DNA of 20,000 nucleotides from an uncultured virus (IMG/VR IMGVR_UViG_3300005758_000005) (taxonomy: Duplodnaviria; Heunggongvirae; Uroviricota; Caudoviricetes), in the IMG/VR virus record IMGVR_UViG_3300005758_000005, positions 109,430-129,429 of that record. One strand, written 5' to 3'. Both the position numbers and the translations under genes were made by a program. This document shows, piece by piece, positions 1,736-18,626 of this stretch. Every line of letters begins with the position of its first letter. Position 1 is the first letter of the stretch. A model generated the notes under the pieces. The model was not told the DNA's origin. It saw nothing but the letters and a program-made list of their open reading frames with translations, and made no database searches.

Positions 1736-2215
1736 CTAAAGGTAAAATTCTCTATTCTTGTCTTCTTCGGTTACTGGATTCTCGGTGACAAAATAAAATT
1801 CTCTATCAACCCACCGCATACCAGAAACAAGGTAAGACATATCAGCACCGTTCGTAATAATAGTCCAAATATTCTCTGGATTATGCTCACGAACGAAATC
1901 CAATTCTTCTCCATAGGTCTCAAAAGCATAACCTTCGTAAGTAGAGGATTCTTCAATCTCATTCTTGATAGGATTATATTTCTCAACCCATTCATCAAAA
2001 GTGTAAATACGCTCTGACTCGATTTTTATATTCTCGACTTTGCAGATTCCAACAGTATAACGAGGAATAATATTTTTAGAGACATACTGCTCAATATAAT
2101 CCTTGGAATCATTGCTGAGAAAAAAAGACTTCTCGATTTTCTTCATTGGCTTACTAGGATAATACCAATCAAAAGAAAGCGAGATTTTAAAGGTTTGTGG
2201 AATAGTTGGGTTCAT
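1736..2215 (-). CDS. Hypothetical conserved phage protein
   Basis: 159-aa ORF with FETYGEELDFV...IWT...SG.RWVDR motif and a leaderless promoter upstream. Confidence 0.8.
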   Translation of the reverse strand: MNPTIPQTFKISLSFDWYYPSKPMKKIEKSFFLSNDSKDYIEQYVSKNIIPRYTVGICKVENIKIESERIYTFDEWVEKYNPIKNEIEESSTYEGYAFETYGEELDFVREHNPENIWTIITNGADMSYLVSGMRWVDREFYFVTENPVTEEDKNREFYL

Positions 2216-2249
2216 GGCGTTAGTATATCAGGTCTCTAGGGGAATGCAA
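2216..2249 (-). promoter_or_regulatory. sigma70-type promoter, leaderless
   Basis: TTGCAT-16 nt-TATACT (TGn), then 6 nt, then ATG. The spacer shares CCCCTAGAGACCTGATA with the promoter at 2807-2840. Confidence 0.7.
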
Positions 2250-2255
2250 GAAATA

Positions 2256-2603
2256 TTACAAGATGCAGAGAGTATTTTCTTGGTACTCGAATTTTGGAGC
2301 ATCTTCTTTTTTTAATATTCCTAAACGATGAAAAAATTCTTCAGGTACAATTGGCTCCCTATCTTCAAAATTAAAAGAATAAGGTAAGACAGGATGATTA
2401 GGAGATAGTTTCACCAATGCTGTTCTTCCATCTCGACAATGTACTTTTAAAATAAATGTACCTGATTGATGTCTAAGAACTTTTGGAGAATGAAATAGAA
2501 AACCATTCCATTCAATTTTATAAGATGGTGTACTTCTCTCATAAACATATCTCCAAGGATTATATTCAACAGGAGAAGATTCCCAAAGTTCTTTAAGAGT
2601 CAT
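2256..2603 (-). CDS. Hypothetical protein
   Basis: 115-aa ORF in the minus-strand run. Confidence 0.7.
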   Translation of the reverse strand: MTLKELWESSPVEYNPWRYVYERSTPSYKIEWNGFLFHSPKVLRHQSGTFILKVHCRDGRTALVKLSPNHPVLPYSFNFEDREPIVPEEFFHRLGILKKEDAPKFEYQENTLCIL

Positions 2604-2605
2604 TT

Positions 2606-2806
2606 TTAAATTCCTATATAAAGCACTAGTTCTTCTTGGTTTACATTAATAAGGTCAGCAGTCTTTTCATATTTCTTTTCTATAGCATCCAAGAGTTCAG
2701 CGATAGAGTTAGAATTAGAAAAGAAAGACACAGGGTAAGAATTGAAAAAGCAAGTGCCATTATCAATAATCACCGAGAATTTCTGAAGGTCAATTGTTTC
2801 GTTCAC
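2606..2806 (-). CDS. Hypothetical protein (GTG start)
   Basis: 66-aa ORF directly after a leaderless promoter. Confidence 0.65.
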   Translation of the reverse strand: MNETIDLQKFSVIIDNGTCFFNSYPVSFFSNSNSIAELLDAIEKKYEKTADLINVNQEELVLYIGI

Positions 2807-2840
2807 AGGGTATTGTATCAGGTCTCTAGGGGGTATGCAA
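2807..2840 (-). promoter_or_regulatory. sigma70-type promoter, leaderless
   Basis: TTGCAT-17 nt-TACAAT (TGn), then 5 nt, then GTG. Confidence 0.75.
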
Positions 2841-2842
2841 AT

Positions 2843-2875
2843 AAAAAACCCCTATCTCTTGGCGGTGGATAGGGG
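2843..2875 (-). terminator. Intrinsic terminator
   Basis: CCCCTATC/GATAGGGG stem plus a T6 tail on the minus strand. Confidence 0.75.
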
Positions 2876-2924
2876 CTTGGTTCACTTGTGGAAAGTTGGT
2901 AAAGGACAAGTGAAAAGTGGGATA

Positions 2925-3221
2925 TTATTTTACTTCTTTAAGCCATACTGTAGGATAGGCATCGAATTCATCTGTCCTAGTAACCTCAAAGACTTTACCA
3001 AAATAAGAGTTGGCTCCATTAGCAAGTTGATTAGGATTGACTCTTCCAGAAGCAAAGTCAGAACCTTGATGCTTTACAATTGACTTGCGATACATATCAA
3101 CATATACTTTAATATCTTCGGCATTATACAAGCCATCTGATTTATGAAGACGTTCCGCTTCTTCCATCTTTGGCTTCAATTCTACGCTCAACTCTTCCAA
3201 CGTACTAAACGACAATTCCAT
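2925..3221 (-). CDS. Hypothetical protein
   Basis: 98-aa ORF with an AGGAG SD, downstream of the tRNAs. Confidence 0.75.
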   Translation of the reverse strand: MELSFSTLEELSVELKPKMEEAERLHKSDGLYNAEDIKVYVDMYRKSIVKHQGSDFASGRVNPNQLANGANSYFGKVFEVTRTDEFDAYPTVWLKEVK

Positions 3222-3252
3222 TTTAATCTCCTAGAGAAATTTAATCAAACAG

Positions 3253-3325
3253 TGGGACGGGAGGGATTTAAACCCTCGACTCCCCGGTTAAAAGCCGGGT
3301 ACTCTAGTCGCTGAGTTACCGTCCC
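3253..3325 (-). tRNA. trnK: tRNA-Lys(UUU), CCA not encoded
   Basis: Cloverleaf: GGGACGG/CCGTCCC acceptor, ACTC/GAGT D-stem, CCCGG-CTTTTAA-CCGGG anticodon arm, GAGGG-TTTAAAT-CCCTC T-arm. Confidence 0.93.
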
Positions 3326-3331
3326 AAACAA

Positions 3332-3623
3332 TAGCACCTGAGAGGCTCGAACTCTCACGGGTTGCCCCAATAGATTTTCTTACCACTATAATTTTCATTA
3401 CCAGAATAAATCTGTTTGTGGTCTGGACTTTACCTTCATCATAGTATTACTACCTTAGATGTCCTGTGTCAAGTCTCTACACGTTCCTAATTTCTTAGGC
3501 TTCGCTCGGTATTCCCATTTAAAAGGGTTCACCGAATTTACAGGATTCTACATTAGAAATTTCTCTCTAAGCACTCATATTTAACTCAAAGTCTATCGCA
3601 TCTGCCAATTACGCCAAGGTGCC
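3332..3623 (-). tRNA. trnL: tRNA-Leu(UAA) interrupted by a group I intron (exons 3589-3623 and 3332-3378)
   Basis: The joined exons give a GGCACCT/AGGTGCT acceptor, ATAGA-CTT^AAAA-TCTAT anticodon arm, GGG-GCAA-CCC variable arm and GAGAG-TTCGAGC-CTCTC T-arm. Confidence 0.92.
3379..3588 (-). ncRNA. Self-splicing group I intron (trnL/IC3-like), 210 nt, no internal ORF
   Basis: Core elements P AAATTCGGTGAA, Q AATACCGAGC, R GTGTAGAGACTT and S AAGGTAAAGTCC. P1 ACTT/GAGT with a U-G splice pair, P3 TCCTGT/ACAGGA, P7 GACTT/AAGTC and a terminal G. Confidence 0.92.
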
Positions 3624-3642
3624 TCATAACTCTTACAAACAT

Positions 3643-3671
3643 ATCTTACCTTGTTTCATCTCTCTTGTCAA
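3643..3671 (-). promoter_or_regulatory. sigma70 promoter for the tRNA operon
   Basis: TTGACA-17 nt-TAAGAT, about 20 nt upstream of tRNA-Leu. Confidence 0.8.
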
Positions 3672-3772
3672 CTCCCTTTCCTAGCATTATCACAAATTTC
3701 TCTGCGATAATGCTAGTTTTGAAAGGAGACCGAAATGAACAACATCAAGTGAATATCGCTTTAACTTGACAC
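3672..3772 (-). ncRNA. Candidate structured small RNA of about 100 nt
   Basis: Own TTGACA-17-TAATAT promoter and no minus-strand ORF of note. 5' hairpin TCAAGT/ACTTGA, an anti-SD tract, and a 3' hairpin CTAGCATTATC/GATAATGCTAG. Confidence 0.5.
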
Positions 3773-3776
3773 ACCT

Positions 3777-3805
3777 ATATTACCTAATCCTCAGAGCCAT
3801 GTCAA
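3777..3805 (-). promoter_or_regulatory. sigma70 promoter
   Basis: TTGACA-17 nt-TAATAT, immediately downstream of a terminator. Confidence 0.75.
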
Positions 3806-3814
3806 GCAAAGCAC

Positions 3815-3845
3815 AAAAAAAGGGAGAGAAATTAATCTCTCCCTT
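3815..3845 (-). terminator. Intrinsic terminator of the 342-aa gene
   Basis: AAGGGAGAGA/TCTCTCCCTT stem plus a T tail. Confidence 0.85.
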
Positions 3846-3862
3846 AAGAATTAAATAAAATC

Positions 3863-4891
3863 TTACTTAACCCAGAATTCAACCTTATTACCAGCAGACC
3901 CACCAGAAGCCACCGAAACAGATGAGATTCCGATGTATTTATTAGTGGAGAATGTGATTTGTGCATTTGCGGCAGAGTTGACTGGAATGGTAACAACGAT
4001 TGTGGCATCATTTGTTCCATCTGCTTTAATAGGAACCACATTAAGAACGATAGGAGTGACGCTAGAGACCTGTGTAGAGTCCGATGCAAGTCTTACTTCT
4101 AACAATGTAGCAATCATCCCAGAAACGCTCGAAACGCTTGTAAGGCTTCCCCATGTTCCTCCAGTGTTAGTTAAGGAATATAATTTTACGATCAATTCCT
4201 CATTTTTAATATTTCTGTGGAATCTTCTGTAATTTTCGCTCCAAGTAACATTAAGAACAGCAGGGGATAAACCATTAGAATCAAGACCTGTAAAATAATT
4301 TCTTAAAGTCTTGGTAGTGATGGATGTGAAGTAAGTGTCTAGTGCTGTTTGATATGCTGTTAATGCGGACGAAAGAGCAGATGTTAATGTACCTTCATTT
4401 GTTCTAAAAGATTTTAATAAAGTAGAAGTAGCATCTGTATCAGTATCGGTTATATCATTTTCAGCAAGAACATCACCAAGCAACAATCTATTAAAAAAAT
4501 TAAATTCGTATGTATTAGAATAAATTGTATCTACTGCTGTTGGTTTGGAAGCCATTTGAATTACATATGGTTGAAGAGTTGAGTTGGAGCCATATGTTGT
4601 AGAGATTGTAATGCTTGTGTCAGACCCTACAGCAGAGATAGTGTACCATGTTGTGATAAGTGATGGGTCGTTGCTTCCGATTCCAATTCTTGCTGGAGCG
4701 GTGGAAGCATTAAAATTTAAACTTGTCCATACGGTGCTGGTTCCTGTGATTGTTGGAGAACCAGAAGAAGTTGCAACAGTTCCAGTAATATAATAATTTG
4801 GTTTTGCTGATTGGTCTCTTAACAATCTATCAGCGTTTCCAAGGTTTGTAGTTAATGTCGAGATTGTAGACGGGGCGATTACTTTAGCCAT
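3863..4891 (-). CDS. Thr/Ser-rich putative virion structural protein
   Basis: 342 aa. GTVATSSGSPTITGTSTVWT resembles tail-fibre/spike N-terminal beta motifs. MAK start, AAGGA SD and flanking terminators. Confidence 0.6.
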   Translation of the reverse strand: MAKVIAPSTISTLTTNLGNADRLLRDQSAKPNYYITGTVATSSGSPTITGTSTVWTSLNFNASTAPARIGIGSNDPSLITTWYTISAVGSDTSITISTTYGSNSTLQPYVIQMASKPTAVDTIYSNTYEFNFFNRLLLGDVLAENDITDTDTDATSTLLKSFRTNEGTLTSALSSALTAYQTALDTYFTSITTKTLRNYFTGLDSNGLSPAVLNVTWSENYRRFHRNIKNEELIVKLYSLTNTGGTWGSLTSVSSVSGMIATLLEVRLASDSTQVSSVTPIVLNVVPIKADGTNDATIVVTIPVNSAANAQITFSTNKYIGISSVSVASGGSAGNKVEFWVK

Positions 4892-4967
4892 TTAGAACCA
4901 TCCTTAAAAAGATAATAATATTTTTTCTTTAATGTATCTTTTGTGACTAACCGTAATGAGAACCTTT

Positions 4968-5002
4968 AAAAAAATCCCCCTCGAATTTCTAAGAGGGGGA
5001 TT
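4968..5002 (-). terminator. Intrinsic terminator after rIIB
   Basis: AATCCCCCTC/GAGGGGGATT stem plus a T-run. Confidence 0.8.
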
Positions 5003-5010
5003 GATTGGGT

Positions 5011-6222
5011 TTAGAGTTTGCTGTATTCCTGATAGATTTTAAATACATCATCCTCAGAAGTGAATTGAAGAAGAATCACAAACTCTGGATTAATCTTATG
5101 CTGGTCATCAATATCCTTATAGAAGTTCTTAAGGGCATTGGCTACCGCAGTACGTTGGTGACCATAGAGGAATGCAAGCATATTAATATAATTGAATCTC
5201 TTAGTCTTCCAATCATCCAAGATAGTTCCGTCAAGGTCGAGAGTAAGTTGAACCTCAGTCTTGCTTTCACAATCTTCACAGAGAATATTATCAGAAAGAT
5301 TCATGTCTACGCAAGCACATTCATTACATCGTGGACATTCGCAATCATCAATGATACATTCACAATCATCACATCGCTCTGCATCAAGATAATATTCTTC
5401 ATCATCAACAGTGAGGATTTCATATGTTCTTGGTTGCCATTTACCTTCGACATATGCATCATTCTCTGTCTCGAAATTTGAAGTGTATCTACCTTCTACG
5501 AGAGGCTTTTCATATTCTGCCACAACCTTATATCGACAGGTGCGGAGTTTTTGAAAATTACAATCTGTAGGAATCGAAACAACATCTGCCGGGTCGATTT
5601 CAACAAGAACAAGTTTATCAGATTCAGAAGCAAAGTCAGAGGCATATTCCAAAGTACCAGCATGGAAACCGTAGGAACAACCAACCTCTTTATTGTCATC
5701 TACCTTGTTGCGAGGCATTTCCAAAACGCTACCAACAGTATTGAAGAATGTTCCAGAATACTTATCGGAGAAGTCTGAACGAACAGCCTTATAAGCAAGG
5801 AATGTTCCAGAATCTGTGATAGGAAGATGCTTATGCTCAAGGAAGGTATAGAGTTCATCCACTGCACGTTTTGATGGATTGAGTTGAAGTCGAGTCATAA
5901 ATTTAAAAATATGAACTGCATCAACATCACCAGCAAGGGCATTGAGAACCCGCTCTGCTACAATAGACGTTACTGCATCACCGTCGATATAAACATTGCC
6001 ATCCTTCACCTCGATATTCTCATACTGGAAATAGAGACGTTGGAGTTTATTAGCAGGATTGATGTAGTCTACCAATCCCTGCCAATCAGAATCCTTATAA
6101 GCCTTGAGAGCGTTAGGGAATGCAGGGTTGGAAGCATTAATGGTGTACTGTTTTCCATCAATGAATACGGTGATGAAACCAGAGATTGGGTCATCATTAA
6201 GAAGTTTTGCTGTTGGGTTCAT
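5011..6222 (-). CDS. rIIB: rIIB-like lysis-inhibition/membrane-integrity protein with an acidic Cys-rich C-terminal extension
   Basis: NPSKRAVDELYTFLE...LPITDSGTFLAYKAV...MPRNKVDD...CSYGFH...VEIDPADVVSIP.DC..K.RTCRY are rIIB hallmarks. Lies downstream of rIIA. Confidence 0.9.
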   Translation of the reverse strand: MNPTAKLLNDDPISGFITVFIDGKQYTINASNPAFPNALKAYKDSDWQGLVDYINPANKLQRLYFQYENIEVKDGNVYIDGDAVTSIVAERVLNALAGDVDAVHIFKFMTRLQLNPSKRAVDELYTFLEHKHLPITDSGTFLAYKAVRSDFSDKYSGTFFNTVGSVLEMPRNKVDDNKEVGCSYGFHAGTLEYASDFASESDKLVLVEIDPADVVSIPTDCNFQKLRTCRYKVVAEYEKPLVEGRYTSNFETENDAYVEGKWQPRTYEILTVDDEEYYLDAERCDDCECIIDDCECPRCNECACVDMNLSDNILCEDCESKTEVQLTLDLDGTILDDWKTKRFNYINMLAFLYGHQRTAVANALKNFYKDIDDQHKINPEFVILLQFTSEDDVFKIYQEYSKL

Positions 6223-6290
6223 TCTTTTTTCCTTTAAGAGAGATAAGGCATCGGGGCTTGTCTTTCGTCCTTATCACCGATTGACATAGC

Positions 6291-6319
6291 ATATTACCAA
6301 ACTATTTCTGAGACCGCAA
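6291..6319 (-). promoter_or_regulatory. Putative promoter for rIIB
   Basis: TTGCGG-17 nt-TAATAT in the rIIA-rIIB intergenic region. Confidence 0.55.
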
Positions 6320-6326
6320 GGGGATA

Positions 6327-8351
6327 TTAAAGTTCTTTTCCAATAATATCTGCCATCAGACTAATATTACCATTGATAGCCGGGACAAGCAATGGGAACT
6401 TTTTAATATATTCTTCCTTGATATCAAAAGGCTTCTCGGAAATATCAAATCTCAAGGCATACCAGAGCGATGTAAATTTCTCAAGATTATTAAAGTCTTC
6501 GTGAATCTTTTGGAGTTGATTTTTAATATCTTCTGGAAACGAATCCTTATTGGCAAAGAACAGAGCCTTCCATCGACCTTCAAGATTATAATAAGTATTC
6601 CAGTTATTATATTCTTCAGCGTATCTTGTCATCACCAAACTTTTAAATTCTTCCACATAGTCATCAAAAGATTGCATCGTATCAGGAACATTCTTGATAT
6701 TTGCCTTCTTGACTCCGTAGAATGACACAGGCTCTTCTCCACGCTCAGTCAAGAATTTATTAATAATGTTTGTATAGTCCCTGATATACATTGGGTCTTG
6801 AACATAATAGGAAGTAGATTTAAAATATTCCAATGGCAAGTATACAGCATTGTCTTCCACTTCATCAACAGGAGTCCAACAATCAGAATTTGTTTTTCCC
6901 ATATAAGGATTAATTTTATAAAACTGAGCGTTGATACTCTTCTTGCCTGATATTGTCTTAGGTTTAGGTGCTGGAGTGTATGGAATATCTTTTAAATATA
7001 CAATCGTGGCTCCATCAAAGTCAGGCTGGTCTTTAAATTCTTCTGCCTTCTGGGTGCTTTCAAAAGACAAGATGAACTTTCTTGCATTCTTAAAAGGATT
7101 AAAACCATTGATATTATTCTGGAGACAATAAGATTGAATTCTTGGCTTGATTGAATTCCTCTTAAGATTAGCATTGTCAATAAAGAGAATGTGACCTTCT
7201 TGTGGAGCAATATCTGAATTCTTTTTATAAGATTTGTCACTGGTCTCCATCATTACATAATTGATTCCATATTCTCTCAATCTCTTCTCATTAAAGGTCG
7301 TAGGGATGGATTGGGTAAGATTGGAGACATTGACAATATGCATGAACTGAGCATCAATATGTCGCTTATGGATTGACTTTTTCCAGAGTGAATTCTTCTC
7401 TTCCAAAGATTCTGTAATTGTATTAATAATATCTGCTTGAATATTAGAGATAGACTTCATAATAAAATCTTTTGTCTTATTATCCATCTCAAGGTTTTCA
7501 CGGGATGCAGATGGTTTCACTTCTCCAATATTTGCGGTAAGAACAATATGGCTTCTCGAATTTTGGATATACTTGCGTGTTTCATAATCCAAAGAATCCA
7601 AGGAAGCAGGATAGAGAACATTGCCCATCAAGACCGACAAATCACCTTCACCATAATACTCCCGGCGATACATCTTCCAATTGCCACCTTCAAGGATTGG
7701 ATTGATTAAACGGGCAGACTCGATTAGATTAGCAATACTAGTATCACCCATGAACTTAGGAATTGGATTAAAATTCTTAAAGAAGGATACAGAGTTATTT
7801 CTAAAGTTGGAAAAGTCTACAGCGGAATTAATATTAATATGAACGCTAAGACCTGTCTCATCTGTTGGTTTGGTGGAAAGAAGAGCGACCTTGCCTACAT
7901 TTGTTTCGTCGATGTATGCTTGGTAGGTGTATTCTGTTCCATTATGCCGGGAAATAATCATAAAGGAATTAACATAACAGAATGCGGATTTGCTACCAAG
8001 ACCAAGCATTCCCACCTGTTCATTTGTATTACGCTTGGTTGATGCACCGTAGGAAGCAAAGATATTCTGAACATCATCTGGGGAAAGACCAAAACCAAAG
8101 TCTCTTACAATAAAGGTAGGAGAGAAGGATGTTGGCAAGGTGATTTCAATTGGACGCTCTACATTCGCTTCAATATGTGCATCGTAAGCGTTGGTGGAAT
8201 ATTCCCGAATAACTGCAAGAACTTTATTAGAATAGAGTTGATTGCGAAGAATAGAAAAGATATGAGCAACATTCTCTTGACGAATATTGAAAGCAACCTC
8301 GTTCTCAATGCCTTCCCGCTCTACCTTAAACGCAACCTCATTAACAATCAT
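6327..8351 (-). CDS. rIIA: rIIA-like protein (N-terminal GHKL/HATPase domain); start moved to the ATG at 8351
   Basis: LYSNK...VIREYSTNAYDAH, VRDFGFGLS, YGASTKR, GMLGLGSKS and PSASRENL motifs. GGAGAG SD precedes MIVNE. Confidence 0.9.
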   Translation of the reverse strand: MIVNEVAFKVEREGIENEVAFNIRQENVAHIFSILRNQLYSNKVLAVIREYSTNAYDAHIEANVERPIEITLPTSFSPTFIVRDFGFGLSPDDVQNIFASYGASTKRNTNEQVGMLGLGSKSAFCYVNSFMIISRHNGTEYTYQAYIDETNVGKVALLSTKPTDETGLSVHININSAVDFSNFRNNSVSFFKNFNPIPKFMGDTSIANLIESARLINPILEGGNWKMYRREYYGEGDLSVLMGNVLYPASLDSLDYETRKYIQNSRSHIVLTANIGEVKPSASRENLEMDNKTKDFIMKSISNIQADIINTITESLEEKNSLWKKSIHKRHIDAQFMHIVNVSNLTQSIPTTFNEKRLREYGINYVMMETSDKSYKKNSDIAPQEGHILFIDNANLKRNSIKPRIQSYCLQNNINGFNPFKNARKFILSFESTQKAEEFKDQPDFDGATIVYLKDIPYTPAPKPKTISGKKSINAQFYKINPYMGKTNSDCWTPVDEVEDNAVYLPLEYFKSTSYYVQDPMYIRDYTNIINKFLTERGEEPVSFYGVKKANIKNVPDTMQSFDDYVEEFKSLVMTRYAEEYNNWNTYYNLEGRWKALFFANKDSFPEDIKNQLQKIHEDFNNLEKFTSLWYALRFDISEKPFDIKEEYIKKFPLLVPAINGNISLMADIIGKEL

Positions 8352-10766: not shown

Positions 10767-10974
10767 AGATCAGCATGTTATCATCTTCTCGAATGATTTT
10801 GCCAGCAGCTGTTACAAGATGTTCGTCGATAGAGAGATTCCAATTGTTCTCATTATAAAGATCACGGAATTCTTCTAGAGTGTAAACCTTATCATCTTCG
10901 AAAAATCTAACTGTGGCTTCTTCTGAATAAAAATCTATAAGTCGGTCAATAGCGGTGAGGTCTAATAGTTTCAT
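10744..10974 (-). CDS. Hypothetical acidic protein
   Basis: 76-aa ORF. Confidence 0.65.
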   Translation of the reverse strand: MKLLDLTAIDRLIDFYSEEATVRFFEDDKVYTLEEFRDLYNENNWNLSIDEHLVTAAGKIIREDDNMLICEIYENS

Positions 10975-10995
10975 GCCTTATTATTCCCTCGATTT

Positions 10996-11310
10996 TTAGC
11001 TTTTGAGGCGCTTGAGTAAAAAAGGTATGAAAAAAGGAGCAATTAATAACATGCCTCCGTACCTCACATATATACTACCCTCGAAAAACCCAATAATATA
11101 AAAAATAATGCTCGAAAAAATAGGATATAAAATAATAAAGAGAATTAACCTTAAGATAAAAAGGATCTGGACCCTTTTAAAAGCTTTGGGGAAATTTTTA
11201 CATTTACGACATTCATATTTAATAACGTCGCTGTAGAAATTATCACCACAAACCTCACACTTAAGTTTAATTCTCTTTAATGTGCAACTTGATAAAACAC
11301 TATTTTTCAT
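10996..11310 (-). CDS. Zn-ribbon membrane protein
   Basis: CEVC...CRKC followed by two hydrophobic segments. Confidence 0.65.
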   Translation of the reverse strand: MKNSVLSSCTLKRIKLKCEVCGDNFYSDVIKYECRKCKNFPKAFKRVQILFILRLILFIILYPIFSSIIFYIIGFFEGSIYVRYGGMLLIAPFFIPFLLKRLKS

Positions 11311-11331
11311 TACAGTGTTTTATTCTATTTT

Positions 11332-11808
11332 TTAGAACTTGAATCCCAACATCTTAGTAAAGTCATCGATCTTTACAGAAGCGGTGACAAGAGCCCGGAC
11401 CTTATCTGTGCTCGAAAAACGATTAGCAAGATCCACACCCTCTACATAAGCGCCAGCCGAAAGACTTACACCATTGATAACCTTACCGAATGGAACAAGA
11501 ACTCCAACACCTACTGCAGCCTTATCACCATACTTATCTGTGCTTAAGACTCCAACGGTTGAAACAGTCTTTCCAAGTACAGTATAATTGCCTAGAGTAG
11601 AAAGGGCCAATGCATTACTATTTCGGCCATCAATTCCAACTCCTGCAGTAAAACCATTAAAGCGACCATCACTGAACTGAGGCTTAACAAAAAAGCTCTT
11701 AGCACCAACTTCCGCCTTCTTTCCCCCAACTTGAGAGAATGATCCGCTGCAAACTAAACAGGAAATAACAACTGGAATTACACTCTTAAATACTAAATTC
11801 TTAATCAT
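11332..11808 (-). CDS. Exported beta-strand-rich protein, outer-membrane-protein-like (likely start MIKNLV)
   Basis: Signal-peptide-like N-terminus, Gly/Val alternating strands, C-terminal LGFKF, and an AAGGA SD before the ATG at 11808. Confidence 0.55.
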   Translation of the reverse strand: MIKNLVFKSVIPVVISCLVCSGSFSQVGGKKAEVGAKSFFVKPQFSDGRFNGFTAGVGIDGRNSNALALSTLGNYTVLGKTVSTVGVLSTDKYGDKAAVGVGVLVPFGKVINGVSLSAGAYVEGVDLANRFSSTDKVRALVTASVKIDDFTKMLGFKF

Positions 11809-11854
11809 ATAAAAATTCCTTCTAGACTTTAACGTCATATTTTATTATTCCCCT

Positions 11855-12301
11855 TTACTCGAAATATGCAATCACCCTAAGATCTTTTTTTAACCTATCC
11901 TTTATTCGTTGTATCTTCTTTCTTAAAGCCACAACAGATAAACCATATTTTTCTGACAAACTATTATAATCTTCCCCTAGAGAATAAAATTTAAAAAGCT
12001 CGAAATCTTTTCCCAATATTTCAAAGACAAGCTCCTCTAATTCGTTTGTCTCGAAATTTTCCCTATAAATCGGCTCATCTATAAAATCTAAACTCTCGAA
12101 TTTCTTTTTCCTTGAACGATCTATTAATGCGTTTAAAGCTATACCAATTAAATAACTTTTCTCAGTCTCTTCTCTAATGTTATAATTTCGAATTAAAAGA
12201 TTATAATAAACATCACTAGTTAATTCCTCTGATAAATTATAATCTTTTGTTTTACTATATAGATAATTAAATATTACCTTACGATATTTCAAAAGCTTCA
12301 T
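11855..12301 (-). CDS. ECF-like RNA polymerase sigma factor (regions 2 and 4 only)
   Basis: SEELTSDVYY, SYLIGIALNALIDRSRK (region 2) and G.DY..LSEKYGLSVVALRKKIQRIKDRLK (region 4 HTH). Confidence 0.8.
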   Translation of the reverse strand: MKLLKYRKVIFNYLYSKTKDYNLSEELTSDVYYNLLIRNYNIREETEKSYLIGIALNALIDRSRKKKFESLDFIDEPIYRENFETNELEELVFEILGKDFELFKFYSLGEDYNSLSEKYGLSVVALRKKIQRIKDRLKKDLRVIAYFE

Positions 12302-12307
12302 AAAAAT

Positions 12308-12339
12308 AAAAAAGAGGAAAAGAATATTCCTTTCCTCTT
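12308..12339 (-). terminator. Intrinsic terminator
   Basis: AAGAGGAAA/TTTCCTCTT stem plus a T-run on the minus strand. Confidence 0.65.
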
Positions 12340-12360
12340 CTCCCTTAAAAAATAAAAATC

Positions 12361-12858
12361 TTAATCACATAACAAGAAAGAATAACGGAACTTATGCACA
12401 GCTACAATAACTTCTTCGTCACTATAATCTAACTCATTAATTGCCACCCTATAATATTGTATCATGTTCTTAATAGGTGGGTCAAGAGGTGCTAAACCAT
12501 TCTGCACTCTATACTGTGTCCAACTCCTATAATGCTGCCCAAGAGAACCAAGATTATAAAGGAGCAAATCAAAATCGTTAAAAGGAACACTCCAATCAAC
12601 TTTAAGCTTCTCTAACTCTTTTAAATTCTCACCCTGAAAATCCTTAAGCTTCTTATCACTCTCGAAAAATTCACCAATCTCTTCACCATACTCGAAAACC
12701 TTATACTTGTCTTCTTTCTTTTGAACTTTTACTGGCTCCTTAACAACTTCTTTAACAACAGGCTTAACTTCAACAACTTCAACGGTTTCTACAATTTCTT
12801 CTTTAGTCTCAACAGTTTCTTCCACTGCCTTAACTTCCTCGATTTTCTTCCTTGCCAT
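12361..12858 (-). CDS. Hypothetical protein with E/V/K low-complexity N-terminus
   Basis: 165-aa ORF with an AAGGA SD. Confidence 0.75.
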   Translation of the reverse strand: MARKKIEEVKAVEETVETKEEIVETVEVVEVKPVVKEVVKEPVKVQKKEDKYKVFEYGEEIGEFFESDKKLKDFQGENLKELEKLKVDWSVPFNDFDLLLYNLGSLGQHYRSWTQYRVQNGLAPLDPPIKNMIQYYRVAINELDYSDEEVIVAVHKFRYSFLLCD

Positions 12859-12950
12859 ATTTTTTCCTTTCGGCTGTGGATTCTTAAACGATATCCTTAC
12901 AAAATAATAGAGAAAAATCCTCTATATCCTCTTTTACAATAAAAATATCC

Positions 12951-13502
12951 TTAAGACCTCGAAAAACTAATTCCAAGCTCCTTTAACCGCTTATTTATGA
13001 CCGGAAAACCTGTAACAACCCCACCATTAATTTCTATCTCTTGTTCACCTATATCAGATAATTTTATTTTTCCACTACCATTAAAATAATATCCCTGATT
13101 ACTCGAACCCCTTAAGCCACCCCAAATTCTCTTACCCCTATCATATCGCCCATAAACCAATAAGTCAATATAATCCAAACATTTTTTCTTATCAAAATCT
13201 TCTAAAATTTCCCCTATATCAAAACCACTAAAAACAACAACTCCCCCAGGTAAATCCAACTCCACTAAAAGACTATATAATTCATCTGCTTGTAAGAAAG
13301 GTTCACCCCCAGATATTGTTAATCCCGGAGACTTTATAAAATCTAATACATCTCTTACACTATAATATTCTCCACCCTCGAAATTCCATGTCTCAGGATT
13401 AAAACAGCCGAGACATCCTAAATTACATCCCTGAAACCAAATAATATCCCTCTCTCCAGGACCGTTAACAAAAGTACTCGAAAGCTTACCAAATAGTTGC
13501 AT
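12951..13502 (-). CDS. nrdG: NrdG-like radical SAM activating enzyme
   Basis: VNGPG.R..IWFQGCNLGCLGCFNPETW (CxxxCxxC), TISGGEPFLQ, IDLLV.GRY and LRGSSNQ. Confidence 0.85.
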   Translation of the reverse strand: MQLFGKLSSTFVNGPGERDIIWFQGCNLGCLGCFNPETWNFEGGEYYSVRDVLDFIKSPGLTISGGEPFLQADELYSLLVELDLPGGVVVFSGFDIGEILEDFDKKKCLDYIDLLVYGRYDRGKRIWGGLRGSSNQGYYFNGSGKIKLSDIGEQEIEINGGVVTGFPVINKRLKELGISFSRS

Positions 13503-13531
13503 CCCTTAAATCCATCCTGTATAATAAACGC
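13497..13531 (+). promoter_or_regulatory. sigma70-type promoter, leaderless
   Basis: TTGCAT-17 nt-TATAAT, then 6 nt, then ATG. Confidence 0.75.
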
Positions 13532-13966
13532 ATGAGTAAGGTTTTTAATAACGTATATCTAAAACTTAAAGAAGAATACGAACAAAGTGAGCCAGTAGAA
13601 TATAACTCGAAAAATCTACTGAAGAATATTAGCACGACATTAGACAATCTTTATAAAAATCTTCTCAACATTGAACTTATACTTAAAGAGATTACATTAT
13701 TCGATACCAAAACATCTGAGGAATTTTTAAATCTCTCTTATAAAAATATCGAAGAAATACATAAGAGTTTTCCTAAGATCTTTTTCGACACACCAATAGA
13801 AGAAAATTATCCAGAAACATACTTAGATGCAATAGAAGAATTAATAGCATCTGTAATCACCTTAAGATTCTATTTAGTAAGACTCGAAAATCAAGATAAT
13901 AAAAATATCCTATCACTCTTAGATTCTTATATTCTTAACATTAAACTATATACCAAAAATTATTAG
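13532..13966 (+). CDS. Hypothetical helical protein, transcribed toward the putative origin
   Basis: 144-aa ORF with a canonical promoter. Confidence 0.7.
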   Translation: MSKVFNNVYLKLKEEYEQSEPVEYNSKNLLKNISTTLDNLYKNLLNIELILKEITLFDTKTSEEFLNLSYKNIEEIHKSFPKIFFDTPIEENYPETYLDAIEELIASVITLRFYLVRLENQDNKNILSLLDSYILNIKLYTKNY

Positions 13967-15129
13967 GCTCGAAAAATACACCTTAAGATATTTTAAAAAG
14001 TTGAACCTAAATCTTAAAGTACTATAGGGGAAGAACAAAAGAATCTCAACTCCAAAAATAGGCTCGAATTTTAAAGTGTGATATAATGTAATACTGTGAA
14101 CCTAAAATACTCGAAAAACTCTAGGGGATATTTTTAATTCTATAGTGGGTATTGTGCTCGATTTTTGGAATTTTTTAGGATTCTTGATATATACTAAAAA
14201 ATTTGCAGGAAAGTCTTTTGTAAATACAGAATGATATTTATTCACACTAGGATTTTAAAATAGACCTCCGAACAGAAAAAGCCCCGATAAAATTCTTCTT
14301 GTTGTTAAATAAAACTCTTCTGGTCTAATTCAAAAATCTAGGAGTTGTTTAGAAAAATTCCTGTGGTCTGATTCAAAATTTCTAAGGTCTGTTTACAAGA
14401 ATCTTATTTAAATTCTTCCTGTAGTTAAGTAAAAGTCCTAGGGTTTGATTTAAAAGATTCTGTGCTATTCAATTAATTCTCTTATGGTATTAAATCTAGA
14501 GTGTTATTTTAAATTCCCTTATTATTATTCTTTTATTCTCTGGGGTTTTTTATTTTAATTATCCCTATTGTATTATTTTTTCTTCTAGGGTATAATATTT
14601 AATCTATTTATTTCTCTATAGGCTAAATTTTGTTTTTTTTCTTATTCTACCCTATCTTTTATCATTATCTATCAGTATTGTTTTTTATGTAAGTTATTTG
14701 GCATTAGGGTTTTTAATTAGTAGTGAATGGGAATAGGATTTTTTTTGTATGGTAAGATTTGTTTTTAAATGGGAATAGAATTTTGTTTTATGGTGTATTA
14801 TTTTATTAGTTTGGGTTGTAGTCTCCATTGTGTTTTTAAATTTGTTTTTGTTGGGTATTTTTAGAAGGAATATTAGAAAGCTTTGCAGAATATATTAATT
14901 AGTCTTATTGTCTGTATTGATAATTTGGCTTTTTTTATATTTAGTATTAATGTGGTATGAATCTATCTTTTTTAATGGTTGTTTTAGCTTAGGAATCTTT
15001 TGTTTTTAGAATTTTGATTGATTTGTTTATATATTTTCTGTGTTATATTTTTTTGGGTTTTTTGGGCTTATTTTTTACATTAATTTTACGTTGTTATTTT
15101 TTTGTATATATTATGTGAGGTATATTATT
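13967..15129. other. Putative bidirectional replication origin region
   Basis: Longest non-coding tract in the window. The + strand flips from C/A-rich to G/T-rich, overall gene polarity diverges, and the tract holds phased repeats and a T-rich stretch. Confidence 0.65.
14288..14470 (+). repeat. Degenerate tandem units of about 21-22 nt (iteron-like)
   Basis: Units such as aaaactcttctggtctaattc / aaaaattcctgtggtctgattc / aaaatttctaaggtctgtttac / aaaagtcctagggtttgattt. Positions 14290-14335 are imperfectly repeated at 14410-14455. Confidence 0.6.
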
Positions 15130-16191: not shown

Positions 16192-16410
16192 ATGTGGTAT
16201 AGATATTCTGGTGTAACAATATTATATAAATTTAATAATCAAAAGAAATCTTTAAGGGAGCATTTGGAGGATTTATTTCCAGATGTTAATTCTGTGGATA
16301 TTTTTTATTTAATGAATAGAGTGCGATCAAGAGCTAAGAAATTGGGTGTGTCTGTTGAGGATGTGCTTTATGACATTGCTTTCGATGGTTTATTTAGGGA
16401 TGGCAGATAA
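16192..16410 (+). CDS. Small hypothetical protein (MWYRYS...), possibly DNA-binding
   Basis: 72-aa ORF coupled by TAATG to the next gene. Confidence 0.65.
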   Translation: MWYRYSGVTILYKFNNQKKSLREHLEDLFPDVNSVDIFYLMNRVRSRAKKLGVSVEDVLYDIAFDGLFRDGR

Positions 16411-18626
16411 TGTGGTATAAATTTGCGGCTTTTGCTAAGTTAATTAAAAATCTTTATCCTTATGAGTTTTGGGTTGAAGTAGAAGAGAAAAATGAATTAA
16501 GAGAAATTGTTCCATCATTTAAAAAAATTGTACCTGGGCAAGAAATGGGAATTGTGGCTTGGGGTAAATTATTAAAAACAAGCACCCTCAACACTAAAAA
16601 TGAAAATACATTATTAAATTTTTTATCATCAAGAATTACAGAAGATGCTGAAGGGAAAAAAGTCTATACAAGTGTTTATAAGGGTGATATTTTTTTGGCT
16701 AATCCTATAATTGGTGGATTTTGGATTGAAGAGGAAAACAAAAATGAATTAGGGCAGATTGTAAAAGTCTCTAAAGAAATTGGGTATGGAGATTCATTCA
16801 ATCTTACAGAATGGAAGAAAATATTAAGAACAAATCAAATTAATGCTAAAGATAAAGATAGTTTGAAAAAATTTCTAACTGATGATAAATTCAAAATGAT
16901 CGGTGATAAGAAGTTTTATGTACCTATTCCTTTAGGTAAACCAACATTATTAAAAAATCCTATAGTTGGTGGTTTTTGGATTGAAGAAGAAAAAAAGAAT
17001 GAATTTGGAGAGATTGTAAAAGTCCCTAAAGAAATTGGGTATGAAGAACCTAAAGGTATTAAAGAGTGGAGAAAATTATTAAAAACACACAAAATAAATG
17101 CTGAAGACCTTGATAGTTTGAAAAAATTTCTAACTGATGATAAATTCAAAATGATCGGTGATAAGAAGTTTTATGTGCCTTCATGGCAGGGTGAGGAAGT
17201 TTTAATAAAAAATCCTATTACTGAAGGGTTTTATATAGATGGAGAATTTATTGGTCCAGAGACAACAATGAATATTGCTGATTGGACCAATAAATTGAAA
17301 ACTTTTGCTATAAGATCACGTAAACAAAGTTTACAAGAATTTTTGAGTGATAAATTGACCCGAAACAAGGAAGGTAAATTAGAATATTTCTATGATCCTC
17401 GAGAAATGTATAGAAAATTCTATTTTAAGAATCCTATATCTGAAGGATTTTACTTAGATGGAGACCTTATTGGTCCTGAAACTTTTTTATCAACCTCTGA
17501 TTGGAGAAGATTATTAAGTACTGAAAAAATTGATAAAAACAATCCAAACAGTTTAAGAGATTTCTTAAATCAACCTGGAATTCTGACAGAAATTGATGGA
17601 AAAAAATATTATAATTATACAGGTCAAAAAAGATATATTAAAAATCCATTAAATGAAGTTTTTTGGGTTGAAAAAACACCTATAGAGCCAAATGAAGAAT
17701 TTACGGTTTCAGGATGGGCAAAATTATTAAATACCAGTTGGTTAAACACTACTAATGATGAAGTGCTAAAAGATTTTTTAAGTGATAAAAGAAGATTCAG
17801 GACTCGTAACAACAAAAAAACTTATATACCTGTAAAAAGATCTTCAAGAGAGGGATTATTTTCAGAAAAATTTTATAACTATAATCATGATGACATAACT
17901 GTTAAGGCTGGTAAATATATAATTGTCATGACTAACAAAACTAATATTTTGTATTTAGATTTTGCTTTCATGAAAAATGATAAAATATTGCTTGCTGTCG
18001 AGATCAATGGATATCAACATTATGGTTTTGTAACATTTGGTAAAAAATTATCTTATCAGGATTGGCAAGATGGTTTACTAAGAGATATCTTGAAAATCAA
18101 TTATTGTTATGAAAATAAAATTCCTTTATTAATTTTCAATCATATGTTATCATTGAGCGAATTCAAAAGTATATTGGATAATTTGCATAAAAACCCTCAT
18201 GCTTATGAAAATTTTATCCCCCAACCTGTAATTGACAATAATCCTAAAAACACATCTTTAGAATTTATTAAAAGACAGATTTATTCTCATTTATATCCTG
18301 TTTTTAATGACACAATTACTTTTGAAGATGATGAAGCTAAAAAAAGATATATTAAAGATACCTTGATCTTAATTTCAAAACTTATGGGTGTTTATGAGAA
18401 CGGGATTGATAAAACAGACTATATTAGAGCATTTGATACTAATGTAGATTTAACTTCAAATTACAACATATGTTTAGCAATATATAATTCATTACATCCT
18501 GATTATCCATTAGATAAAGATGAAAAAATCACCTATTCAGATTTATCTAAAAAACCAAGAATTTTTAAAGAAAAACCACTTGAAAAACAGAAACCTAAAG
18601 AAAACTTAATCCCCTCAGAAGAATAG
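16410..18626 (+). CDS. Tandem-repeat protein with a Vsr/DUF559-like PD-(D/E)xK endonuclease domain
   Basis: About six repeats of 70-85 aa (KNP...GF.I....IG.......W.K.L.T..I......L..FL), followed by LYLDF...LAVEINGYQHY...D.LK..YC.ENKIPLLIF. Confidence 0.75.
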   Translation: MWYKFAAFAKLIKNLYPYEFWVEVEEKNELREIVPSFKKIVPGQEMGIVAWGKLLKTSTLNTKNENTLLNFLSSRITEDAEGKKVYTSVYKGDIFLANPIIGGFWIEEENKNELGQIVKVSKEIGYGDSFNLTEWKKILRTNQINAKDKDSLKKFLTDDKFKMIGDKKFYVPIPLGKPTLLKNPIVGGFWIEEEKKNEFGEIVKVPKEIGYEEPKGIKEWRKLLKTHKINAEDLDSLKKFLTDDKFKMIGDKKFYVPSWQGEEVLIKNPITEGFYIDGEFIGPETTMNIADWTNKLKTFAIRSRKQSLQEFLSDKLTRNKEGKLEYFYDPREMYRKFYFKNPISEGFYLDGDLIGPETFLSTSDWRRLLSTEKIDKNNPNSLRDFLNQPGILTEIDGKKYYNYTGQKRYIKNPLNEVFWVEKTPIEPNEEFTVSGWAKLLNTSWLNTTNDEVLKDFLSDKRRFRTRNNKKTYIPVKRSSREGLFSEKFYNYNHDDITVKAGKYIIVMTNKTNILYLDFAFMKNDKILLAVEINGYQHYGFVTFGKKLSYQDWQDGLLRDILKINYCYENKIPLLIFNHMLSLSEFKSILDNLHKNPHAYENFIPQPVIDNNPKNTSLEFIKRQIYSHLYPVFNDTITFEDDEAKKRYIKDTLILISKLMGVYENGIDKTDYIRAFDTNVDLTSNYNICLAIYNSLHPDYPLDKDEKITYSDLSKKPRIFKEKPLEKQKPKENLIPSEE
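16857..17176 (+). repeat. Perfect 65-bp direct repeat (16857-16921 and 17112-17176)
   Basis: Identical gatagtttgaaaaaatttctaactgatgataaattcaaaatgatcggtgataagaagttttatgt copies 255 nt (85 codons) apart. Confidence 0.9.

Follow-up and report, generated by a model that had tools for sequence, protein, structure and literature searches.

We found that an uncultured giant phage carries a short, asymmetric DNA word, repeated in a single orientation, across the genes and non-coding DNA of one bounded block of its genome. The word occurs on the IMG/VR virus contig IMGVR_UViG_3300005758_000005 (129,429 bp; GC content 33%), and our analysis centred on the final 20 kb of that contig (positions 109430–129429), a stretch of 20,000 nucleotides (nt) that we call the window. 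Coordinates below refer to the window unless they are given as genome positions, which count along the contig. The array is polar, is selected at the nucleotide level, has sharp limits and is conserved in diverged relatives. What reads it is a matter of interpretation: we give a probability of roughly one in three to a Chi-like signal that would be read by a helicase–nuclease entering at a DNA end or an origin, at the point where the array begins and the GC skew changes sign.

A polar word fills one block of the genome

A sequence-only reading of the window had listed 22 copies of CTCGA on the plus strand, pointing towards a skew switch. All 22 are present, as CTCGA(A/T)n, between 10788 and 14161, and the minus strand has none in this dense part. 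These copies occupy minus-strand genes (in all frames), a plus-strand open reading frame (ORF; 13532–13966) and the non-coding DNA at 13968–14161. Across the whole window, CTCGA has 43 matches (36 plus, 7 minus), compared with a mean of 17.9 (standard deviation 4.6, maximum 31) in 200 dinucleotide-preserving shuffles. Further to the left, 13 sparser plus-strand copies are spread over 2018–7723; they comprise the six that had been pointed out before (2018, 2132, 2286, 4980, 5470 and 7555) and seven more (2033, 2432, 3275, 3346, 4128, 6010 and 7719). The copies at 3275 and 3346 are coincidental, because the first lies inside the T-arm of tRNA-Lys and the second inside an apparent tRNA T-arm; among the 60 copies of the whole block described below, three or four are coincidental matches of this sort, in tRNA T-arms or at a tRNA 5′ end.

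The array runs on leftward beyond the window to genome position 101374, 8 kb before the window starts, where a second dense block holds 25 copies (genome 101374–107514). Contig-wide, there are 75 plus and 29 minus copies of CTCGA, and 60 of the 75 plus copies fall within the 22-kb block at genome 101,374–123,586. Expressed by region, genome 100–124 kb holds 60 forward and 5 reverse copies, and the remaining 105 kb holds 15 and 24. The polarity is sharper still for CTCGAAA (33 forward and 0 reverse in the 24-kb slice; 3 and 4 in the other 105 kb), which is by far the most enriched word in the slice when lengths of 5 to 8 are compared. Aligning the 60 sites gave a consensus of about 10 nt, CTCGAAAWWY on the plus strand and RWWTTTCGAG on the minus strand, and no informative position outside it within 40 nt on either side. 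Spacing between copies is broad, with a median of 143 nt. Density reaches 2.7 copies per kb over the block and 6.5 per kb in the dense part, about 15 times the background of about 0.17 copies per kb per strand outside the block; the earlier estimate of one or two copies expected by chance was of the right order.

As had been described, the array stops abruptly, at 14161, and is not mirrored to the right. No comparable polar word was found right of the skew switch, either in the contig or on the other side in a relative, and no second polar word is common to the clade (CCTTAAG is enriched in the studied phage only). Avoidance of the word elsewhere in the genome was ruled out, with 35 copies observed outside the block and 38 expected under an order-3 Markov model. 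The word is neither enriched nor avoided outside the block, and within it the reverse orientation stays at the background rate, without depletion. Positive selection acts on the forward orientation only, and inside the block only.

Selection acts on the nucleotide sequence

The copies were said to fall in different reading frames, and they do, in all three. Sixteen of the 60 sites are intergenic, 7 lie in plus-strand ORFs and 37 in minus-strand genes (23, 10 and 4 by frame), the 23 in the commonest frame encoding Phe-Glu or Ile-Glu as xTC GAG. The 43 genes of the block contain 44 forward copies (and 5 reverse), more than in any codon-preserving control: 300 shuffles of synonymous codons within each gene gave a mean of 17.6 (standard deviation 3.5, maximum 28), and 300 shuffles of codon order gave a mean of 15.5 (maximum 26). 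Intergenic DNA of the block has 16 copies in 3,801 nt, compared with 1.9 expected. The word also forces rare codon pairs in the array genes. There, 16 of 30 Phe-Glu pairs are written TTCGAG, as are 8 of the 10 that lie in the dense part, against 3 of 65 in the rest of the genome; the share predicted from single-codon use is 12–16%.

Within arrays, density is highest in intergenic DNA (5.25 per kb), followed by same-strand ORFs (2.77 per kb) and opposite-strand ORFs (1.96 per kb). The opposite-strand ORFs, which total 7.7 kb, keep the direction of the array (15 copies forward, 2 reverse), so that direction is a property of the domain and not of the messenger RNA of each gene. The one frame shared by 23 of the 37 minus-strand copies and the extreme GC skew of the region might suggest that the array arose as a side effect of base composition, codon bias or the amino acids encoded, but such an artefact is refuted by the shuffles, neither kind of which reached the observed count, by the choice of codon pair inside and outside the array, by the intergenic and opposite-strand densities, by the presence of a C in the word on a C-poor strand and by its retention in relatives with saturated synonymous sites, and we regard it as negligible.

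The array is conserved in diverged relatives

Relatives in IMG/VR include contigs of 166 kb (46% complete according to CheckV) and 358 kb (89% complete), so the contig is part of a jumbo phage genome that measures roughly 400 kb. Scans of its 167 ORFs against PHROG and Pfam identified a portal, a large terminase, a DNA polymerase, a DnaB/DnaC-like helicase and loader, a split primase, UvsX-, RecJ- and SbcD-like proteins, rIIA and rIIB, class I and anaerobic ribonucleotide reductases and three sigma-like proteins. Six tRNA genes were detected. A DNA search for close isolated phages gave no match, and rIIA is at most 34% identical to that of isolated phages.

An equivalent array had been proposed as something to look for in related genomes; it was found, and its density is not genome-wide. 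A search with the NrdG-like gene led to a relative at 47% identity whose array has the same orientation with respect to NrdG (28 copies forward, 3 reverse). Searching with the UvdE-like gene returned 49 loci, and the array was present in all 7 at an identity of at least 67% and in none of the 42 at 58% or less; other polar k-mers in those 42 distant loci turned out to be tandem coding repeats. The seven array loci are one self match, L050, the pair L051 and L052 (counted as one), L053, L054, L055 and L095. Forward and reverse copies number 53 and 0 in the 16 kb of L095, 49 and 2 in L055, and 38 and 0 in L053, and the seven loci together have 311 forward-strand sites, with 0–7 reverse copies each. 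There is one domain of about 22–40 kb per genome: 40 of the 41 forward WTTCGAG copies in the 166-kb record lie within 122.3–163.2 kb, and 38 of the 39 reverse-strand TTTCGAG copies in the 358-kb record lie within 168.6–197.4 kb. In every locus with upstream flank, including L049, L052 and L095, the array starts at a low-GC switch in GC skew.

Clade relatives share 47–76% protein identity; in the relative that we compared gene by gene, orthologous proteins are 33–53% identical and UvdE 70%. Copies per orthologous gene are kept (4 and 4 in NrdG, at 47% identity, and 3 and 3 in the next gene), and their positions are only partly shared, which indicates selection on density and direction rather than on particular sites. 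With the shuffles, the codon pairs and the direction kept in opposite-strand genes, these diverged relatives uphold the core of the sequence-only reading, a directional code laid over coding and non-coding DNA. Our literature searches found no description of the word, or of a polar array in jumbo phages. The aquatic 'moraphages' described elsewhere (PMC12619734) may be related to this clade.

The limits of the block

GC skew runs from −0.27 to −0.52 over 11–14 kb of the window and from +0.21 to +0.51 over 14–16.5 kb. The change of sign, and the start of the array, coincide with a low-GC region (14162–15039; GC 0.26–0.28) that has no ORF of at least 80 amino acids. Just upstream of the first word copy, in the direction of the array, this region contains iteron-like direct repeats (14290–14455; three or four copies of a 20–46-nt unit, in families D1 and D2), which are candidate origin or early-promoter repeats; the array starts 100–300 nt downstream of such tandem promoter-like repeats. 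The switch could be an origin, an early-promoter cluster or a genome terminus, or could combine two or all of these roles. The word itself does not resemble origin iterons, which are direct repeats of 17–22 bp within less than 1 kb, because it has about 10 nt and is spread over 22 kb. When the non-coding DNA around the switch was aligned for three members of the clade, no solid conserved block emerged. The repeat region differs between strains, as a contig from DNA run X13 has 135 other letters in place of 14295–14453. To the right of the switch, in a strain-variable block, a plus-strand gene (16410–18626) encodes a 738-amino-acid protein in which a unit of about 65 amino acids recurs five or six times and which matches no family significantly. 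The strain-variable block has poor coverage in another strain and is missing from the relative.

At the far end, the array closes with five copies within 140 nt (genome 101,374–101,514) at a convergent gene junction, and the next 10 kb has none. This end follows a tRNA-Arg gene and a hairpin with a T run, with five copies beyond that hairpin.

A Chi-like signal is the leading interpretation

The word is co-oriented, lies on one strand, has no fixed position relative to genes and fills a bounded domain; its reader would therefore track either DNA or one long transcript, starting from the boundary. In the interpretation that we rank first, a machine would enter at the skew-switch boundary and track leftward along the DNA, reading the word as it goes. 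The likeliest such reader would be a Chi-responsive helicase–nuclease, either a host enzyme of the RecBCD/AddAB type or the resection machinery of the phage itself. It could load on a double-strand end at the boundary, which we infer might be a genome terminus, the edge of a terminal repeat, a pac cut or a rolling-circle tail, and its encounters with one co-oriented word after another would halt degradation and favour recombination of the block.

This ranking rests on a precedent and on geometry. In phage LLS, 20 of 23 Chi sites are in the active orientation and cluster at the RecBCD-open end, phage MD8 has 32 Chi sites in one orientation and 0 in the other, and lambdoid Chi arrays place the word on the strand whose 3′ end is at the RecBCD-open end (PMC12315714). 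In the jumbo phage, the dense end of the array adjoins the boundary, and the word is on the strand whose 3′ end points to it, so the geometry would equal that of the lambdoid arrays if an end forms at the switch. The word is also asymmetric and co-oriented, as Chi is, with 60 forward and 5 reverse copies in the domain.

Several observations weigh against a Chi-like role. The contig has no terminal repeat, and IMG/VR classes related records as linear fragments. The nearest cellular homologues of the phage NrdA are mostly from Bacteroidota, and we chose candidate host-like genomes, from the genus Flavobacterium, by NrdA similarity only. Ratios of the word to a reversed control ranged from 0.13 to 17 in 61 Flavobacteriaceae genomes and 41 genomes of the same genus, but the high values reflect the control: those genomes avoid AGCT, which occurs in the reversed word, and the ratio is thereby inflated. 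Relative to an order-3 Markov model, the excess of the word was 1.6-fold in one candidate genome (G107) and 1.4-fold in another (G097); ranked 121st of 14158 heptamers in a candidate genome, the word does not behave like Chi there. An apparent all-plus run of the word in genome G057 was a listing artefact. Flavobacterium-genus genomes may not be hosts at all, because TCGA and AGCT usage in the phage is the opposite of theirs and because the phage uses TATAAT boxes. Known Chi sequences are G-rich, and this word is not. At 22–30 kb and up to 6.5 copies per kb, the array is far denser and longer than a nuclease stop needs. Its start past promoter-like repeats and its end at a convergent junction fit a transcription unit equally well. 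The phage also has UvsX-, RecJ- and SbcD-like genes, whereas the Chi-rich lambdoid phages have no recombination genes of their own (PMC12315714).

Other possible readers

Nearly as likely as a Chi-like signal, although still tentative, is a co-transcriptional signal of one long leftward early unit, read on the non-template strand or in the nascent RNA (as RWWUUUCGAG). It might serve to load an antitermination or anti-Rho factor again and again, or flag early RNA for cleavage by a phage endoribonuclease, as RegB does in T4 but with another word. The placement of the array argues for it: the start lies 100–300 nt past the promoter-like repeats, the direction is that of nearly all local genes, and the far end is at a convergent junction after tRNA-Arg and the T-run hairpin. 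On both flanks of the switch, the coding strand is C-poor, which is typical of divergent heavy transcription. RNA contigs from three metatranscriptome runs in two studies cover parts of the block. Public runs were compared as contigs, with four runs aligned to the window, and such contigs show no RNA ends, strand, DNA termini or coverage steps; the presence of 11283–11953 in RNA-library contigs shows only that it occurs in RNA libraries. The best-covered part of the window, in all three RNA runs compared, is 11332–11838.

Against a transcriptional reader, the opposite-strand genes carry the word antisense to their own messenger RNA (15 versus 2), where only read-through antisense RNA could use it. 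The array also continues past a strong terminator-like hairpin with a T run (12308–12343, minus strand), and five copies lie past the hairpin that follows tRNA-Arg. The word is neither a terminator or hairpin nor an element of ribosome sites. Distances to start codons showed no peak (of the 295 sites followed by a start codon, 20 are less than about 20 nt from it, compared with about 10 expected), and no distance to stop codons was preferred. Pairing between flanking bases equalled the shuffled control in all 30 stem geometries examined, and T-arm-like or other hairpins around the word were rejected because they show no covariation. We know of no elongation signal that repeats every 150 nt.

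A more speculative possibility, to which we give a lower probability, is that the code belongs to the phages themselves: a clade of freshwater jumbo phages of about 400 kb would mark its 22–30-kb early and tRNA block with its own polar 10-nt code and encode the reader. The word would then form a Chi-like or domain-identity system that tells a tracking enzyme which block it is on and in which direction it is travelling. Candidates for that enzyme would be a resection complex, a polymerase-associated factor or a translocase.

A promoter role is unlikely. In it, one of the three sigma-like factors would recognise the word as a −10-like or extended −10 box, and the early block would have many internal promoters. 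The phage does encode three such genes, one of them within the array, and four tRNA-proximal copies read TTTCGAG(N0–1)TATAAT; three of these lie 10–12 nt before a mature tRNA 5′ end (L095 tRNA-Met, L095 tRNA-Gln and the tRNA-Glu of the contig), and the fourth is at genome 104258. Against this, no −35 or −10 partner occurs at any fixed offset among the 311 sites, and neither the 60 nor the 311 sites have an informative column outside −6 to +5. TATAAT-like hexamers at offsets of 0–15 from the 311 sites appear at the background rate (10 at offsets 0–1, compared with 9.6 expected), the spacing from word to TATAAT varies (0, 1, 4 and 8), and a general promoter scan gave 34 matches against 29.4 expected. 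Copies are not placed relative to gene starts, and a promoter every 150 nt inside genes has no evident use.

We consider it similarly improbable that the word orients a DNA translocase in the manner of FtsK-orienting polar sequences (KOPS) or SpoIIIE recognition sequences (SRS), or that it paces genome ejection or packaging by marking the DNA that is first into or out of the capsid. In favour, the word is polar and spans a whole domain irrespective of its genes, and the array has a fixed starting boundary. The block makes up about 7–8% of the genome size estimated from the 358-kb record (29 kb, at a completeness of 89%), which is similar to the fraction transferred by phage T5 in its first step. 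However, the array is not mirrored, no FtsK/SpoIIIE-like gene was found among the 167 ORFs scanned, and to our knowledge no phage translocase or ejection system reads sequence polarity. The analogy with KOPS drawn in the sequence-only reading, like any origin-symmetric role, fits poorly with an array that is one-sided and limited to a domain of 22–30 kb, although the directional code proposed with it stands on selection, polarity and the relatives.

Least probable among the functional readers is a replication-linked signal: a leftward fork that started from an origin at the switch would displace the strand with the word, which would then serve for priming or for loading a helicase. The iteron-like repeats, low GC and symmetric local inversion of skew do look like an origin, and the word would lie on the lagging-strand template of such a fork. 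Yet the fork would pass beyond 22–30 kb and the far boundary is sharp, nothing lies on the other side of the switch, and known primases read sites of 3 nt rather than words of 10 nt. Translocase orientation and replication priming both have less support than the two leading readings.

Genes and other features of the block and contig

The block contains tRNA genes and small ORFs besides genes of early type. Among the conserved genes of the array, the first encodes an NrdG-like anaerobic ribonucleotide reductase activase (12951–13502, minus strand) and has four word copies. The ORF at 13532–13966 (plus strand) is opposite to its neighbours and has two copies, in the direction of the array and not its own. 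Inside the dense array, a small sigma-factor-like gene (11855–12301, minus strand; Sigma70_r2, 25.7 bits against a cut-off of 24) has four copies, all of which encode Phe-Glu as TTC GAG. It is one of three sigma-factor-like genes in the fragment, the others being at L044:2904–3455 and L044:6659–7450, and the three suggest a sigma cascade that would act on the host core polymerase. The gene at 11332–11838 (minus strand) encodes a 168-amino-acid protein that looks like an outer-membrane β-barrel protein, with a signal-peptide-like start and a C-terminal Phe. Beside tRNA-Lys (3252–3325), the minus strand at 3404–3598 matches an Rfam group I intron (54.4 bits; gathering score 50). Because of this match, and because relatives L050 and L052 have an intact tRNA-Leu(UAA) adjoining tRNA-Lys, the gene is probably an intron-split tRNA-Leu(UAA), which ARAGORN did not call.

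Near-identical DNA is present in contigs from estuary, freshwater, wastewater and aquaculture runs, with part of the window in 20 runs from 11 studies. Elsewhere on the contig, a minus-strand gene at L044:5587–6585 (genome about 23.6–24.6 kb) encodes a 332-amino-acid protein of the adenylosuccinate synthetase family (PF00709, E 6e-87) that matches the PHROG family '2-aminooxy adenylosuccinate synthetase' (phrog_1211). We presume that it may be PurZ-like, which would hint at 2-aminoadenine DNA. Over genome 1–100500, GCAGGC/GCCTGC is absent (17.8 expected), as is CTCGAG (5–17 expected), and TCGA is depleted about twofold, with no depletion of AGCT; these shortages look like restriction-avoidance signatures. 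Just beyond the far end of the array (genome 92.8–100.9 kb; L048 2760–10935), an intergenic repeat of 110–150 nt occurs in seven copies. All of them carry the invariant hairpin GGGGGGTTAACCCCCC together with another G/C hairpin, and some have a TTGACA-like box. We take these repeats to resemble the promoter/stem–loop cassettes of T4-type phages.

Significance and comparison with known systems

Few genomes are known to write directional information for a tracking machine on top of their coding sequence, Chi and KOPS being examples of such polar words. Here a word of this sort occurs at very high density, within sharp limits, and uncultured giant phages have conserved it. Were the word Chi-like, it would either be the Chi of an environmental host lineage or belong to the first Chi system owned by a phage, and it would show how one genome end of a giant phage is protected or recombined. 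Were it to act during transcription, distributed signals for elongation would gain a new kind, and if its reader is encoded by the phage, it would represent a new class of cis-acting genome architecture in viruses. Either way, the early block and its boundary can be located in genomes of this clade by a simple search for the word.

Among the systems that invite comparison, the RegB GGAG sites and MotA boxes of phage T4 are, like the word studied here, short and tied to one temporal class of genes in a large phage that encodes rII. The T4 elements, which belong to early and middle transcription units, are placed at ribosome sites or keep a set distance from a −10 box, whereas our word has no fixed partner or position. 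The EcoP15I sites of phage T7 are in a single orientation, and type III restriction needs inversely oriented sites; every copy of that asymmetric word points one way, as in the array. That precedent would explain missing inverse copies but not a 15-fold direct excess, and our reverse copies are at background. KOPS read by FtsK, SpoIIIE SRS octamers and skewed 'architecture-imparting' words share with the word their short length, polarity and independence of gene orientation, and KOPS and SRS are read by a tracking motor. These words are chromosome-wide and mirrored on two replichores, unlike the array, which is one-sided and local. Phage P1 has a Chi bias near pac.

The closest parallel is with the Chi arrays of lambdoid phages. 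The differences are that the word matches no known Chi, that its density is about 4–10 times higher and that it is confined to a bounded 22–30 kb of a genome of about 400 kb with recombination genes of its own. Both systems have a one-orientation bias (20 versus 3 in LLS, 32 versus 0 in MD8 and 60 versus 5 here), and in both the copies cluster toward one DNA boundary, run over genes and lie on the strand whose 3′ end points to that boundary (PMC12315714).

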